DNA from: Escherichia coli
Lineage (GTDB): Bacteria > Pseudomonadota > Gammaproteobacteria > Enterobacterales > Enterobacteriaceae
Reading direction: 5' to 3' (one strand)
NCBI RefSeq assembly: GCF_051903065.1
Contig: NZ_CP178438.1
Length of the DNA stretch: 64,000 bases
Shown here: piece by piece, positions 52,372 to 60,209 of the stretch
How positions within the stretch are numbered: the stretch's first letter is position 1
Layout: the number at the start of each line of letters is the position of its first letter
Notes under the pieces: generated by a model
Database searches by the model: none
Told to the model about the DNA's origin: nothing
Seen by the model: only the letters and a program-made list of their open reading frames with translations
Translations under genes and position numbers: made by a program

Positions 52372-52750
52372 TATTTACTCCTTAAACAAGGACATTAGTC
52401 TACGCCAGGCATGGCTTGCAGACAAATATACCACGCTGGTGGCAAGAGCGCCTTACTGGCAACTTTGGATTTTGCATGCTAATAAAGTTGCGTATCGGAT
52501 TTTATCAGGTACAGTGTGACGCTTTCGTCAATCTGGCAATAGATTTGCTTGACATTCGACCAAAATTCCGTCGTGCTATAGCGCCTGTAGGCCAAGACCT
52601 GTTAACTCAGTCACCTGAATTTTCGTGAACAGAGTCACGACAAGGGGTTGATATCCGCAGAGAACGAGTCCATATCGGTAACTCGTTGCCAGTGGAAGGT
52701 TTATCAACGTGCGACGCATTCCTGGAAGAATCAAATTAGGTAAGGTGAAT

Positions 52751-55348
52751 ATGGGTAAAGCTCTTGTCATCGTTGAGTCCCCGGCAAAAGCCAAAACGAT
52801 CAACAAGTATCTGGGTAGTGACTACGTGGTTAAATCCAGCGTCGGTCACATCCGCGATTTGCCGACCAGTGGCTCAGCTGCCAAAAAGAGTGCCGACTCT
52901 ACCTCCACCAAGACGGCTAAAAAGCCTAAAAAGGATGAACGTGGCGCTCTCGTCAACCGTATGGGGGTTGACCCGTGGCACAATTGGGAGGCGCACTATG
53001 AAGTGTTGCCTGGTAAAGAGAAGGTCGTCTCTGAACTGAAACAACTGGCTGAAAAAGCCGACCACATCTATCTCGCAACCGACCTTGACCGCGAAGGGGA
53101 AGCCATTGCATGGCACCTGCGGGAAGTGATTGGTGGTGATGATGCGCGCTATAGCCGAGTGGTGTTTAACGAAATTACTAAAAACGCGATCCGCCAGGCA
53201 TTTAACAAACCGGGTGAGCTGAATATTGATCGTGTTAATGCCCAGCAGGCGCGTCGCTTTATGGACCGCGTGGTGGGGTATATGGTTTCGCCGCTGCTAT
53301 GGAAAAAGATCGCTCGTGGTCTGTCTGCCGGTCGTGTGCAGTCGGTGGCGGTTCGTCTGGTGGTCGAGCGTGAGCGTGAAATTAAAGCGTTCGTGCCGGA
53401 AGAGTTCTGGGAAGTCGATGCCAGCACGACCACGCCATCTGGTGAAGCGTTGGCGTTGCAGGTGACTCATCAGAACGACAAACCGTTCCGTCCGGTCAAC
53501 AAAGAACAAACTCAGGCTGCGGTAAGTCTGCTGGAAAAAGCGCGCTACAGCGTGCTGGAACGTGAAGACAAACCGACAACCAGTAAACCTGGCGCTCCTT
53601 TTATTACCTCTACGCTGCAACAAGCTGCCAGCACCCGTCTTGGATTTGGCGTGAAAAAAACCATGATGATGGCGCAGCGTTTGTATGAAGCAGGCTATAT
53701 CACTTACATGCGTACCGACTCTACTAACCTGAGTCAGGACGCGGTAAATATGGTTCGCGGTTATATCAGCGATAATTTTGGTAAGAAATATCTGCCGGAA
53801 AGTCCGAATCAGTACGCCAGCAAAGAAAACTCACAGGAAGCGCACGAAGCGATTCGTCCTTCTGACGTCAATGTGATGGCGGAATCGTTGAAGGATATGG
53901 AAGCAGATGCGCAGAAACTGTACCAGTTAATCTGGCGTCAGTTCGTTGCTTGCCAGATGACCCCAGCGAAATATGACTCCACGACGCTGACCGTTGGTGC
54001 GGGCGATTTCCGCCTGAAAGCACGCGGTCGTATTTTGCGCTTTGATGGCTGGACAAAAGTGATGCCTGCACTGCGTAAAGGCGATGAAGATCGTATCTTA
54101 CCGGCAGTCGATAAAGGCGATGCTCTGACGCTCGTTGAACTGACACCAGCCCAGCACTTTACCAAACCGCCAGCCCGTTTCAGTGAAGCATCGCTGGTTA
54201 AAGAGCTTGAAAAACGCGGTATCGGTCGTCCGTCTACCTATGCGTCGATCATTTCGACCATTCAGGACCGTGGCTATGTGCGTGTAGAAAATCGTCGTTT
54301 CTATGCGGAAAAAATGGGCGAAATCGTCACCGATCGCCTGGAAGAGAATTTCCGCGAGTTAATGAACTACGACTTCACCGCGCAGATGGAAAACAGCCTT
54401 GACCAGGTGGCAAATCACGAAGCAGAGTGGAAAGCTGTACTGGATCACTTCTTCTCGGATTTCACCCAGCAGTTAGATAAAGCTGAAAAAGATCCGGAAG
54501 AGGGTGGTATGCGCCCGAACCAGATGGTTCTGACCAGCATCGACTGCCCGACCTGTGGTCGCAAAATGGGGATTCGCACAGCGAGCACCGGGGTATTCCT
54601 TGGCTGTTCTGGCTATGCGCTGCCGCCGAAAGAGCGTTGCAAAACCACCATTAACCTGGTGCCGGAAAACGAAGTGCTGAACGTGCTGGAAGGCGAAGAC
54701 GCTGAAACCAACGCGCTGCGCGCAAAACGTCGTTGCCCGAAATGCGGCACGGCGATGGACAGCTATCTCATCGATCCGAAACGTAAGTTGCATGTCTGTG
54801 GTAATAACCCAACCTGCGACGGTTACGAGATCGAAGAGGGCGAATTCCGCATTAAAGGTTATGACGGCCCGATCGTTGAGTGTGAAAAATGTGGCTCTGA
54901 AATGCACCTGAAAATGGGGCGTTTCGGTAAATACATGGCCTGCACCAACGAAGAGTGTAAAAACACACGTAAGATTTTACGTAACGGCGAAGTGGCACCA
55001 CCGAAAGAAGATCCGGTTCCGCTGCCCGAACTACCTTGCGAAAAATCAGATGCTTATTTCGTGCTGCGTGACGGCGCTGCGGGTGTTTTCCTGGCGGCCA
55101 ATACCTTCCCGAAATCGCGTGAAACGCGTGCGCCGCTGGTGGAAGAGCTGTATCGCTTCCGCGACCGTCTGCCGGAAAAACTGCGTTATCTGGCCGATGC
55201 GCCGCAGCAGGATCCGGAAGGTAATAAGACTATGGTTCGCTTTAGCCGTAAAACCAAACAGCAATATGTCTCTTCGGAAAAAGACGGAAAGGCGACTGGC
55301 TGGTCAGCATTTTATGTTGATGGCAAATGGGTTGAAGGGAAAAAATAA
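52751..55348 (+). CDS. topA: DNA topoisomerase I
   Basis: 865 aa from the ATG at 52751 ([22 protein letters not shown]...); C-terminal zinc-ribbon Cys motifs; track ORF extends 14 codons upstream. Confidence 0.96.
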
Positions 55349-55533: not shown

Positions 55534-56532
<999 letters not shown>

Positions 56533-56850
56533 TTTCTTGCGTTATTATCGGCACCTTTTATGTAGCGAAGGTGCCGTAATATATTCTCTTTTGTTACTTA
56601 TTTGTATACCGTGCACAATATTTTTATCCCTCATATTTATAGGGTAAATTACCTGTAAAGTAGTGTCTAATTACCCGCCTCGCAAACTCCAGTTTTCAAA
56701 TATCTATTTCAGGTCAAAAGATTGAATTATTCACTGAAGACGATTCGTAAATTCGCTGGATTTTTGACTAAAGTTTCTTTAGGATTTGTCTTATCGTATG
56801 ATTAATTACACCAATCGTTCAACGTCTTGCTGATAAGTGATGGCGATTAT

Positions 56851-56991
56851 ATGAGGTTAGCAATGCCTTCTGGAAATCAGGAACCCCGCCGCGATCCTGA
56901 ATTAAAACGTAAAGCCTGGCTGGCGGTTTTTCTTGGTTCTGCACTTTTCTGGGTGGTTGTCGCACTGCTGATTTGGAAAGTGTGGGGATAA
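56851..56991 (+). CDS. ymiA: Small membrane protein YmiA
   Basis: 46 codons from the ATG at 56851 (MRLAMPSGNQEPRRDPELKRKAWLAVFLGSALFWVVVALLIWKVWG); alternative in-frame ATG at 56863; single predicted TM helix. Confidence 0.55.
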   Translation: MRLAMPSGNQEPRRDPELKRKAWLAVFLGSALFWVVVALLIWKVWG

Positions 56992-56993
56992 CT

Positions 56994-57161
56994 ATGGTTG
57001 GTCAGGAGCAACTGGAGTCGTCACCATTATGCCAGGATAGTGACAATGAACCAGAAACGAAACGGGAATGTTCCGTCGTTATTCCAGACGACTGGCAACT
57101 AACATCGCAGCAGCAAGCCTTTATAGAACTGTTTGCTGAAGATGATCAGCCGAAACAATAA
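56994..57161 (+). CDS. yciX: Small acidic protein YciX
   Basis: 55 aa from the ATG at 56994 (MVGQEQLESSPLCQDSDNEPETKRE...), starting 2 nt after the ymiA stop. Confidence 0.55.
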   Translation: MVGQEQLESSPLCQDSDNEPETKRECSVVIPDDWQLTSQQQAFIELFAEDDQPKQ

Positions 57162-57533
57162 TTATCATCATTCTTATTACCCATTTTTAATGAATTAAAG
57201 GGCTTTTAATACACCGCAGCAATAACAGGTTGAGTTATCTCAACACAAAGTAATAACCGTTAAGGGTGTAGCCTATGATCAACACAAATATGAAATATTG
57301 GTCCTGGATGGGTGCATTTTCTCTGTCGATTCTCTTCTGGGCCGAACTCCTCTGGATCATTACTCACTGATCCTTGACCCCGCTGCGGCGGGGTTGTCAT
57401 TTGCTTTGCCACAAGGTTTCTCCTCTTTTATCAATTTGGGTTGTTATCAAATCGTTACGCGATGTTTGTGTTATCTTTAATATTCACCCTGAAGAGAATC
57501 AGGGCTTCGCAACCCTGTCATTAAGGAGGAGCT

Positions 57534-60209
57534 ATGTCGTCAACCCTACGAGAAGCCAGTAAGGACGCGTTGCAGGCCAAAGATAAAACTTACCACTACT
57601 ACAGCCTGCCGCTTGCTGCCAAATCACTGGGCGATATCACCCGTCTACCCAAGTCACTCAAAGTTTTGCTCGAAAACCTGCTGCGCTGGCAGGATGGTAA
57701 CTCGGTTACCGAAGAGGATATCCACGCGCTGGCGGGATGGCTGAAAAATGCCCATGCTGACCGTGAAATTGCCTACCGCCCGGCAAGGGTGCTGATGCAG
57801 GACTTTACCGGCGTACCTGCCGTTGTTGATCTCGCTGCAATGCGCGAAGCGGTTAAACGCCTCGGCGGCGATACTGCAAAGGTTAATCCGCTCTCACCGG
57901 TCGACCTGGTCATTGACCACTCGGTGACCGTCGATCGTTTTGGTGATGATGAGGCATTTGAAGAAAACGTACGCCTGGAAATGGAGCGCAACCACGAACG
58001 TTATGTTTTCCTGAAATGGGGAAAGCAGGCGTTCAGTCGGTTTAGCGTCGTGCCGCCAGGCACAGGCATTTGCCATCAGGTTAACCTCGAATATCTCGGC
58101 AAAGCAGTGTGGGGCGAATTGCAGGACGGTGAATGGATTGCTTATCCGGATACACTCGTTGGTACTGACTCGCACACCACCATGATCAACGGCCTTGGCG
58201 TGCTGGGGTGGGGCGTTGGTGGGATCGAAGCAGAAGCCGCAATGTTAGGCCAGCCGGTTTCCATGCTTATCCCGGACGTAGTGGGCTTCAAACTTACCGG
58301 AAAATTACGTGAAGGTATTACCGCCACAGACCTGGTTCTCACTGTTACCCAAATGCTGCGCAAACATGGCGTGGTCGGGAAATTCGTCGAATTTTATGGT
58401 GATGGTCTGGATTCACTACCGTTGGCGGATCGCGCCACCATTGCCAATATGTCGCCAGAATATGGTGCCACCTGTGGCTTCTTCCCAATCGATGCTGTCA
58501 CCCTCGATTACATGCGTTTAAGCGGGCGCAGTGAAGATCAGGTCGAGTTGGTCGAAAAATACGCCAAAGCGCAGGGCATGTGGCGTAACCCGGGCGATGA
58601 ACCGATTTTTACCAGTACGTTAGAACTGGATATGAATGACGTTGAAGCGAGCCTGGCAGGGCCAAAACGCCCACAGGATCGCGTTGCACTGCCCGATGTA
58701 CCAAAAGCATTTGCCGCCAGTAACGAACTGGAAGTGAATGCCACGCATAAAGATCGCCAGCCGGTCGATTATGTTATGAACGGACATCAGTATCAGTTAC
58801 CTGATGGCGCTGTGGTCATTGCTGCGATAACCTCGTGCACCAACACCTCTAACCCAAGTGTGCTGATGGCTGCAGGCTTGCTGGCGAAAAAAGCCGTAAC
58901 TCTGGGCCTCAAGCGGCAACCGTGGGTCAAAGCGTCGCTGGCACCAGGCTCGAAAGTTGTTTCTGACTATCTGGCAAAAGCGAAACTGACACCGTATCTC
59001 GACGAACTGGGGTTTAACCTTGTGGGATACGGTTGTACCACCTGTATTGGTAACTCTGGGCCGCTGCCCGATCCTATCGAAACGGCAATCAAAAAAGGCG
59101 ATTTAACCGTCGGTGCGGTGCTGTCCGGCAACCGTAACTTTGAAGGCCGTATCCATCCGCTGGTTAAAACTAACTGGCTGGCCTCGCCGCCGCTGGTGGT
59201 TGCCTATGCGCTGGCGGGAAATATGAATATCAACCTGGCTTCTGAGCCTATCGGCCATGATCGCAAAGGCGATCCGGTTTATCTGAAAGATATCTGGCCA
59301 TCGGCACAAGAAATTGCCCGTGCGGTAGAACAAGTCTCCACAGAAATGTTCCGCAAAGAGTACGCAGAAGTTTTTGAAGGCACTGCAGAGTGGAAAGAAA
59401 TTAACGTCGCACGATCCGATACCTACGGATGGCAGGAGGATTCAACCTATATTCGTTTATCGCCTTTCTTTGATGAAATGCAGGCAACACCAGCACCTGT
59501 GGAAGATATTCACGGTGCGCGGATCCTCGCAATGCTGGGGGATTCAGTCACCACTGACCATATCTCTCCGGCGGGCAGTATTAAGCCCGACAGCCCGGCG
59601 GGTCGATATCTACAAGGTCGGGGTGTTGAGCGAAAAGACTTTAACTCCTACGGTTCGCGGCGTGGTAACCATGAAGTGATGATGCGCGGCACCTTCGCCA
59701 ATATTCGCATCCGTAATGAAATGGTGCCTGGCGTTGAAGGGGGGATGACGCGGCATTTACCTGACAGCGATGTTGTCTCTATCTATGATGCCGCGATGCG
59801 CTATAAGCAGGAGCAAACGCCGCTGGCGGTGATTGCCGGGAAAGAGTATGGATCAGGCTCAAGCCGTGACTGGGCGGCAAAAGGTCCGCGTCTGCTTGGT
59901 ATTCGTGTGGTGATTGCCGAATCGTTTGAACGAATTCACCGTTCGAATTTAATTGGCATGGGCATCTTGCCGCTGGAATTTCCGCAAGGCGTGACGCGTA
60001 AAACGTTAGGGCTAACCGGGGAAGAGAAGATTGATATTGGCGATCTGCAAAATCTACAACCCGGCGCGACGGTTCCGGTGACGCTTACGCGCGCGGATGG
60101 TAGCCAGGAAGTCGTACCCTGCCGTTGTCGTATCGACACCGCGACGGAGTTGACCTACTACCAGAACGACGGCATTTTGCATTATGTCATTCGTAATATG
60201 CTGAAGTAA
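57534..60209 (+). CDS. acnA: Aconitate hydratase A
   Basis: 891-aa [29 protein letters not shown]... recognised as AcnA. Confidence 0.96.

Follow-up and report, generated by a model that had tools for sequence, protein, structure and literature searches.

Locus organization and annotation

The window, a stretch of 64,000 nt of the Escherichia coli contig NZ_CP178438.1, carries the genes topA-cysB-ymiA-yciX-ymiC-acnA in this order. The features of the region are detailed in Table 1. In the sequence, ymiA starts with an ATG at 56851, shows a second in-frame ATG at 56863 and ends with a TAA stop codon at 56989–56991; this stop is followed by the dinucleotide CT and then by the ATG of yciX at 56994, whose stop codon, also TAA, is located at 57159–57161.

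Of 5426 complete E. coli genomes, 5421 contained the segment 56533–57533 of the window. It was 100% identical to that of NZ_CP083585.1, in which RefSeq annotates the same ymiA, yciX and ymiC coding sequences, with yciX at the equivalent of 56994..57161 recorded as WP_001295578.1 ("protein YciX"). The three genes are likewise annotated by RefSeq in strain BW25113. Both ymiA and yciX are already annotated E. coli genes, and the observation that started this work re-identifies known genes. The gene names, the lengths of 46 and 55 aa, the 2-nt spacer and the position between cysB and acnA given in the first-pass annotation match RefSeq exactly, and the two in-frame ATG candidates that it proposed for ymiA are correct. 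The third in-frame candidate, the TTG at 56827, and the third small gene, ymiC, had been omitted.

With respect to E. coli K-12, ymiA of the window is the same gene as b4522 (PF22868; NF000536), in the same place after cysB and with no sequence difference. The gene yciX corresponds to b4523 with the same coordinates, and a curated HMM is absent for it. The YciX protein of the window showed 96% identity to that of BW25113, with D15 in place of H and P20 in place of T of the K-12 allele.

Table 1. Genes and sequence features of the cysB–acnA region in the window. AF2, AlphaFold2; SD, Shine–Dalgarno.
Feature	Position	Strand	Characteristics
topA	ends 55348		
cysB	55558..56532		
Conserved promoter-proximal block	56768..56802	+	Palindrome CTAAAGTTTCTTTAG at 56768–56782, GGATTTGTC, candidate -10 TATGAT at 56797–56802
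ymiA upstream in-frame TTG	56827..56829	+	54-aa form, 2014 K-12 annotation; no SD
ymiA CDS	56851..56991	+	RefSeq; 46 aa from ATG1, stop included; single-pass small inner-membrane protein
GAGG SD-like element	56853..56856	+	6 nt before ATG2, inside codons 1–2 of the 46-aa form
ymiA second in-frame ATG (M5)	56863..56865	+	Start of the conserved 42-aa core; 56/56 loci
YmiA predicted transmembrane helix	56917..56976	+	WLAVFLGSALFWVVVALLIW; AF2 model; basic RRDPELKRK before, four-residue tail after
yciX SD-like UGGGG	56983..56987	+	Last two ymiA codons (W45-G46)
yciX CDS	56994..57161	+	RefSeq; 55 aa, stop included; predicted soluble protein
YciX conserved C-terminal module	57081..57158	+	Consensus [IV]PxSWxLTxQQQAFIDxFAEDExKKQ
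STnc180 (Rfam RF02079)	57202..57404	+	197.9 bits (gathering 50), E 7e-43, full model
ymiC CDS	57275..57370	+	RefSeq; 31 aa; third cistron, small membrane protein
Intrinsic-terminator-like hairpin and T-rich tail	57375..57406	+	TCATTTGCTT; 9-bp stem, 6 GC pairs
acnA	57534..60209		

Conservation and selection

The comparison was carried out on 58 species-level loci encoding a YmiA relative, from the genera Escherichia, Citrobacter, Enterobacter, Lelliottia, Leclercia, Kosakonia, Phytobacter, Trabulsiella, Yokenella, Franconibacter, Cedecea, Silvania, Pluralibacter and Salmonella, among others; dN/dS values (pooled Nei–Gojobori estimates) and junction statistics were calculated on 56 species-level loci. 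The gene cysB was located upstream of ymiA in 57 of the 58 loci, the sole one without a visible cysB (L049) being a locus that ends before it, and also in 7 further loci. A yciX-like ORF was detected by tblastn directly 3' of ymiA in 55 of the 58. The exceptions were two loci in which the frame is disrupted (L059 and L060) and that of Salmonella enterica subsp. arizonae (L040), deleted for most of yciX and retaining ymiA and ymiC; therefore, YmiA can exist without YciX.

The pair was also intact in Salmonella enterica, E. fergusonii, Atlantibacter, Pantoea and Izhakiella, and the order cysB-ymiA-yciX-acnA was retained in the loci of the last three genera. In two further loci (L062 and L065) ymiA-yciX follows cysB, though the next gene is not acnA. 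The non-coding DNA around the pair diverges and gains or loses sequence, while the adjacency of ymiA and yciX persists.

Across the 56 loci, dN/dS was 0.10 for the ymiA core (dS 1.05) and 0.22 for the whole of yciX (dS about 1.8). Constraint on the latter was uneven, with values of 0.35 for residues 1–29 (dS about 2.0) and 0.11 for residues 30–55, the C-terminal 26 codons (dS about 1.7). In both genes the third codon positions were the most variable, with the highest entropy. These low dN/dS values, together with the variability at third positions, indicate that ymiA and yciX are both under purifying selection at the protein level. Chance ORFs are abundant in this region, 70 of at least 20 aa overlapping a stretch of 4 kb; ymiA and yciX stand out from this background because their frames remain open and show purifying selection across 56 species-level loci, which upholds the expectation that both frames would be conserved across enterobacteria.

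YmiA protein

YmiA has 46 aa (MRLAMPSGNQEPRRDPELKRKAWLAVFLGSALFWVVVALLIWKVWG) and a single hydrophobic stretch. It matched Pfam PF22868 over residues 1–46 of 46 (125.9 bits, cut-off 27; E 5e-37) and NCBIfam NF000536 with residues 5–46 aligned to model positions 1–42 (96.8 bits, cut-off 30; E 4e-28). The invariant residues of the family are K, R, K, W, F, S, F and W. The AF2 model showed a helix over residues 12–41 of the 42-aa core, with a pLDDT of about 90 in the hydrophobic part. The one transmembrane helix predicted in the first-pass annotation, preceded here by the basic KRK motif, agrees with this model and with the published membrane localisation of the protein. Since the positive charges lie on the N-terminal side of the helix, the positive-inside rule points to a topology with the N terminus inside the cell.

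A GFP-YmiA fusion was located at the membrane, at the cell periphery; overexpression of YmiA caused a long lag and elongated cells, and deletion of ymiA gave no phenotype under the conditions tried (PMC11429745). By PRM, YmiA was detected at ~1000–3000 copies per cell (PMC12529367). Evidence for its translation is thus available in the literature (PMC4909307, 10.1101/511675, PMC12529367).

Start codon and leader of ymiA

Three starts have been annotated for ymiA: the TTG at 56827 (54 aa), the ATG at 56851 (ATG1; 46 aa) and the ATG at 56863 (ATG2; 42 aa). Databases disagree among them, the Pfam model having 46 aa, that of NCBIfam 42 aa, and older K-12 records 54 or 42 aa. By tetracycline-arrested ribosome profiling (TetRP) the start was placed at ATG1, giving MRLAMPSG..., and the supplement of that study lists the 2006, 2014 and TetRP starts; the tryptic peptide LAMPSGNQEPR was also detected, which implies translation upstream of M5 (PMC4909307). 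Initiation profiling with Onc112 and retapamulin by Weaver et al. likewise suggested MRLAMP as the N terminus of YmiA (10.1101/511675).

On the other hand, the GAGG element before ATG2 was invariant in 56 of 56 loci. At the position of ATG1 an ATG was found in 43 of the 56; the codon is otherwise ACG (Kosakonia, Phytobacter), AAG (Trabulsiella) or GTG (two loci). A further ATG seven codons upstream of ATG1, one codon 3' of the TTG, was present in 46 of 56 loci and is CTG in E. coli. The calculated duplex with the anti-SD sequence was -6.3 kcal/mol for ATG2 versus -3.1 kcal/mol for ATG1. For the 12 codons (36 nt) before ATG2, dS was 0.15 and dN/dS 0.8, and coding-type constraint begins at ATG2; to judge from these rates, the 36 nt evolve like a constrained non-coding element and unlike coding sequence. 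A structured leader or riboswitch was considered for this leader and rejected (z-score +1.15, no compensatory pairs, consensus energy -3 kcal/mol).

The ambiguity of the start is therefore real: experiments in E. coli favour ATG1, whereas only ATG2 and its GAGG are invariant across species, and the disagreement among databases can now be framed precisely in these terms. In our reading, the conserved protein is the 42-aa core, to which E. coli adds MRLA through the ATG1 start.

YciX protein and family

YciX of the window has 55 aa and a net charge of -10. The description of this ORF as acidic in the first-pass annotation is right for Escherichia and does not extend to the family, whose net charge has a median of +2; most genera have a basic N-terminal part. 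The ORF length was steady, from 54 to 59 aa across 56 species loci. In the AF2 model, obtained from an alignment of 50 sequences, the sole secondary structure was a helix at residues 38–51, with a mean pLDDT of 83–87 over residues 31–50; residues 1–30 had low pLDDT (52–64) and the N-terminal part was modelled as disordered. Residues P31, W34, L36, Q40, F43 and I44 were invariant in the 50 sequences; they are located in the helix or just before it, on one face.

The window protein carries IPDDWQLTSQQQAFIELF, which fits the motif P-x-S/D-W-x-L-T-x-x-Q-Q-A-F-I; this motif was derived in the present analysis, a curated model being absent, and it was kept in the distant members of the family. The peptide ECSVVIPDDWQLTSQQQAFIELFAEDDQPK also belongs to YciX. 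According to the models, YciX is best explained as a cytoplasmic protein of ~55 aa whose N-terminal part is disordered and evolves fast, and whose C-terminal part forms a conserved amphipathic helix.

Searches of YciX or its profile against Pfam, NCBIfam and PDB gave nothing significant; the best PDB match, Rrn3, with an E-value of 0.68, was judged to be due to chance. A word-indexed protein search returned Escherichia and Shigella only. The view of YciX as an orphan of these two genera was overturned by tblastn on the syntenic loci and by a profile search against 1.84 billion representative proteins, which retrieved 64 relatives. These have 20–100 aa, except for two long proteins rich in repeats (452 and 498 aa). 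Named members belong to Salmonella bongori, Atlantibacter and Mangrovibacter and, outside the Enterobacteriaceae, to Pantoea and Izhakiella (Erwiniaceae); members outside Escherichia are labelled "hypothetical protein". No tag, peptide or footprint evidence for the YciX protein was found in the accessible literature.

The lack of Pfam, NCBIfam or PDB relatives, the narrow result of the word-indexed search, the fast N-terminal part (dN/dS 0.35) and the lack of a published protein-level detection could be taken to mean that yciX is not a functional protein gene. It would then be a lineage-specific spurious ORF, or one kept open by non-coding signals that overlap it, for example a promoter within it that serves acnA or ymiC, or the 5' portion of the STnc180 transcript. 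One acnA promoter has been mapped about 400 bp upstream of acnA, which would place it close to where yciX ends. We consider this explanation highly improbable: homologues occupy the same position across Enterobacteriaceae and Erwiniaceae, the ORF length is conserved, dS is about 1.8 with a dN/dS of 0.22 for the whole ORF and 0.11 for its last 26 codons, and the invariant residues lie on one face of the predicted helix. Constraint at the nucleotide level would instead resemble that of the ymiA leader, with dS 0.15 and dN/dS 0.8. YciX thus constitutes a real, selected family, much wider than its database name suggests and without a curated model or a published study, and its conserved helix is a clearly defined target for mutation.

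The ymiA–yciX junction

The SD-like element of yciX is formed by the end of ymiA. In the window it lies 5–6 nt before the ATG, with a calculated anti-SD duplex of -5.5 kcal/mol, and every one of the 56 loci had UGGGG or UGGAG at 5–8 nt from the yciX start; the last ymiA codons are UGG GGN or, in the Cedecea group, UGG AGC. The spacer between the ymiA stop and the yciX start was 2 nt in 43 of the 56 loci, 1 nt in 10, 0 nt in two and 4 nt in one; when every intact locus examined is included, its limits are -1 and +4 nt. The sequence of the junction was variable: a TGATG overlap in L062 and L065, TAA-GTG in Salmonella enterica, TAA-C-GTG in Atlantibacter, TAA-TTG-ATG in E. fergusonii, and spacers of 3–4 nt followed by ATG starts in Pantoea and Izhakiella (Erwiniaceae).

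Because only 2 nt separate the ORFs, and a few database proteins of 91–98 aa present a YmiA-like sequence followed by YciX (P0002, P0005, P0006, P0041, P0175 and P0200), the two could be regarded as halves of one split ancestral gene, either as a pseudogene or as a fusion produced by programmed frameshifting or readthrough. We find this hardly credible. The ORFs were separate in every complete genome locus examined; the relative frame shows offsets of 0, 1 and 2 depending on the lineage, the ymiA stop is TAA, TGA or TAG, and the spacer goes from -1 to +4 nt, so that no single recoding event fits and a split pseudogene or a conserved recoding event is excluded. Most of the fused entries were taken from short metagenome contigs, and their scrambled junctions point to frameshift errors, and YmiA of about 46 aa has been detected as such. 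At the level of sequence comparison, separate genes with junctions of this kind show selection acting on the proximity of ymiA and yciX as such.

The junction has the classical layout for translational coupling, and coupling itself we infer from it. A ribosome that terminates on ymiA would most likely either start again at yciX or expose the yciX start codon, since this start lies within a few bases of the ymiA stop and the ribosome binding site is made of the last ymiA codons; either event would tie the output of YmiA and YciX together. Regarding the earlier proposal that the tight spacing reflects co-translation, the spacing itself proved to be conserved, from -1 to +4 nt, and coupling is supported, short of proof.

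Short intercistronic distances are common in bacterial operons, and the two genes might instead be co-transcribed and independently translated, with unrelated functions, the spacing being a product of genome compaction and of a ribosome binding site placed in the 3' end of ymiA. This would agree with the SD-like element of yciX, its own and at a normal distance, and with the presence of ymiA without yciX in Salmonella enterica subsp. arizonae. It would also agree with the AF2 results: a YmiA-GS30-YciX fusion, modelled with a species-paired alignment of 41 rows, gave a pTM of 0.26 and no confident complex, and the confidence of the YciX helix was lower in the fusion than when YciX was modelled alone. 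However, adjacency and the spacing of -1 to +4 nt hold in two families of Enterobacterales despite differing downstream neighbours, and meanwhile the flanking non-coding DNA diverges and gains or loses sequence. Independent translation is, in our opinion, a real contender, somewhat unlikely when compared with coupling. The near-touching junction, found in two bacterial families, constitutes a clean natural case for tests of coupling between microproteins.

Promoter and regulation

Promoter activity that is PhoQ-dependent and induced by low Mg2+ has been described upstream of ymiA, being negligible just upstream of ymiC, and the unit was named the ymiA-yciX-ymiC operon (PMC11429745). Reporter data and RNA-seq support a single mRNA (PMC11429745; 10.1101/2020.05.05.079178). 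Additionally, a Salmonella study includes a gene labelled "yciX" among the members of the Cpx regulon (PMC6374596).

In an alignment of 26 species, the ~230 nt 5' of ymiA contained several near-invariant blocks. The promoter-proximal block listed in Table 1 is a putative promoter, with TATGAT as its candidate -10 element. A consensus promoter scan of the + strand found nothing, a result consistent with an activator-dependent promoter. The PhoP box, searched as (T/G)GTTTA-N5-(T/G)GTTTA at the -35 region, was not found with up to 2 mismatches; matches with 3 mismatches only, at 56765, 56776 and 56788, occurred at background frequency in the window, and the conserved AGTTTC-TTTAG-GATTTG is PhoP-box-like at best. 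In view of the lack of a good PhoP box, the PhoQ dependence may be indirect. Scanning with a CpxR-box pattern gave weak matches only, at background frequency and none of them convincing.

ymiC, the terminator and STnc180

YmiC matched Pfam PF23694 and NCBIfam NF041484. Alignment of the YmiA and YmiC profiles with hhalign gave a probability of 92.6% and an E-value of 4.7e-7 over 22 columns, with the shared invariant pattern K..W...F..S.LFW. The two proteins look paralogous by this profile similarity, so that in the operon YciX may be flanked by a pair of paralogous membrane microproteins.

No terminator-like sites were found on the + strand between ymiA and ymiC, and the hairpin after ymiC, at 57375–57396, is likely the end of the operon. 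The Rfam scan of positions 56400–57700 gave no match over ymiA or yciX; its only match was STnc180, an enterobacterial sRNA candidate, over ymiC. STnc180 thus corresponds to the 3' part of the same transcription unit, comprising ymiC and the terminator, and not to ymiA or yciX. As the match holds a conserved coding ORF, the transcript is here at least partly an mRNA.

The ymiA-yciX-ymiC operon

Taking all data together, the best explanation, to which we assign a probability of about 85%, is that ymiA and yciX are separate translated genes, the first two cistrons of a stress-induced ymiA-yciX-ymiC operon. YmiA would span the inner membrane once, its N terminus lying inside the cell. More speculatively, YmiA and YciX, possibly together with YmiC, may act jointly on the cytoplasmic side of this membrane in response to envelope stress or low Mg2+.

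A broader proposal is that Enterobacteriaceae and Erwiniaceae share ymiA-yciX-ymiC as a conserved module of three microproteins, in which the paralogous single-pass membrane proteins YmiA and YmiC flank a cytoplasmic partner, YciX. The invariant C-terminal amphipathic helix of YciX would dock on YmiA and YmiC or on a shared membrane target, coupling would set the stoichiometry, and YciX would be an overlooked effector or adaptor of the envelope/Mg2+-stress response, overlooked for being just above the 50-aa cut-off of small-protein studies. We put this forward tentatively and regard it, in its complete form, as unlikely. The re-identification of ymiA and yciX by itself changes little; its by-products may be useful to specialists in bacterial small proteins.

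The closest parallels are the pairs mgtS-mgtT and yriA-yriB, described under low Mg2+ (PMC11429745). As in ymiA-yciX, they consist of short, touching or near-touching ORFs on one PhoQ-dependent transcript, which encodes a membrane microprotein alongside another small product; YciX, being above the 50-aa cut-off, was outside the scope of that study. These pairs are unrelated in sequence to ymiA-yciX, and in E. coli ymiA and yciX abut with no overlap.

Coding content of the ymiA-yciX-ymiC operon

The YmiA and YmiC profiles were aligned with hhalign over 22 columns (Prob 92.6%, E 4.7e-7), a score to be read with caution given the biased composition of transmembrane segments, and every invariant YmiC residue of the pattern K..W...F..S.LFW coincided with an invariant YmiA residue. 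On the basis of this profile similarity, YmiA and YmiC may be paralogous membrane microproteins encoded in one operon. The full-length match to STnc180 (Rfam RF02079, 198 bits) overlies the ORF of ymiC together with the terminator of the operon, and the catalogued "sRNA" thus includes a conserved coding ORF; STnc180 probably corresponds to the 3' portion of the ymiA-yciX-ymiC mRNA.

In the representative of Salmonella enterica subsp. arizonae (locus L040) most of yciX is deleted, leaving a remnant of 15 codons after a GTG, and both ymiA and ymiC are retained. Salmonella enterica subsp. enterica (locus L063) retains a YciX homologue of 56 aa, whose GTG start abuts the TAA of ymiA.

Features of the locus (window coordinates, unless a fetched locus is named)
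Feature	Position	Strand	Remarks
topA	52709-55348		ORF list entry, 879 aa, GTG start
Conserved region	56620-56862		stretch of about 230 nt, upstream of ymiA
Conserved blocks	within 56620-56862		AAAGTAG, GCAAAT, TCAAATATCTATTTC..GTCAAAAGATTGAAT, CGTAAATTCGCTGG
Palindrome CTAAAGTTTCTTTAG	56768-56782		in the conserved region
ymiA	56851-56991
STnc180 match	57202-57404	+	RF02079
ymiC	57275-57370
Region of the yciX deletion	L040 3139-3330		subsp. arizonae
yciX homologue	L063 1663-1833		subsp. enterica
Inverted repeat TGTCGCAAATTTGCGACA	about 200 nt 5' of ymiA		L010, L011, L014, L017, L024, L027, L031 and other fetched loci

Regions flanking ymiA

The region 5' of ymiA showed unusual conservation across genera, with several conserved blocks and a palindrome. 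In the 36 nt preceding the second in-frame ATG of ymiA (56863) the dS, pooled over 56 loci, was 0.15, versus 1.05 within ymiA. This region yielded no RNA structure and no clear box for PhoP or CpxR. In the 26-species upstream alignment, many genera other than Escherichia carry a perfect inverted repeat directly 3' of cysB, which is missing from the E. coli window; this repeat might act as an operator or represent the terminator region of cysB.

Further upstream, the GTG given for topA in the mechanical ORF list lies 14 codons 5' of the start of the 15-letter protein sequence; this offset is an artefact of the listing rule, under which an ORF begins at the first start codon to follow a stop, and not a feature of the sequence.

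Among natural E. coli isolates the cysB-acnA interval is occasionally disrupted, as observed in two records, NZ_AP023230.2 and NZ_CP189662.1. In one strain of this pair an IS1A element sits inside the interval, and in the other the match spans no more than 57% of the region, divided between two places.
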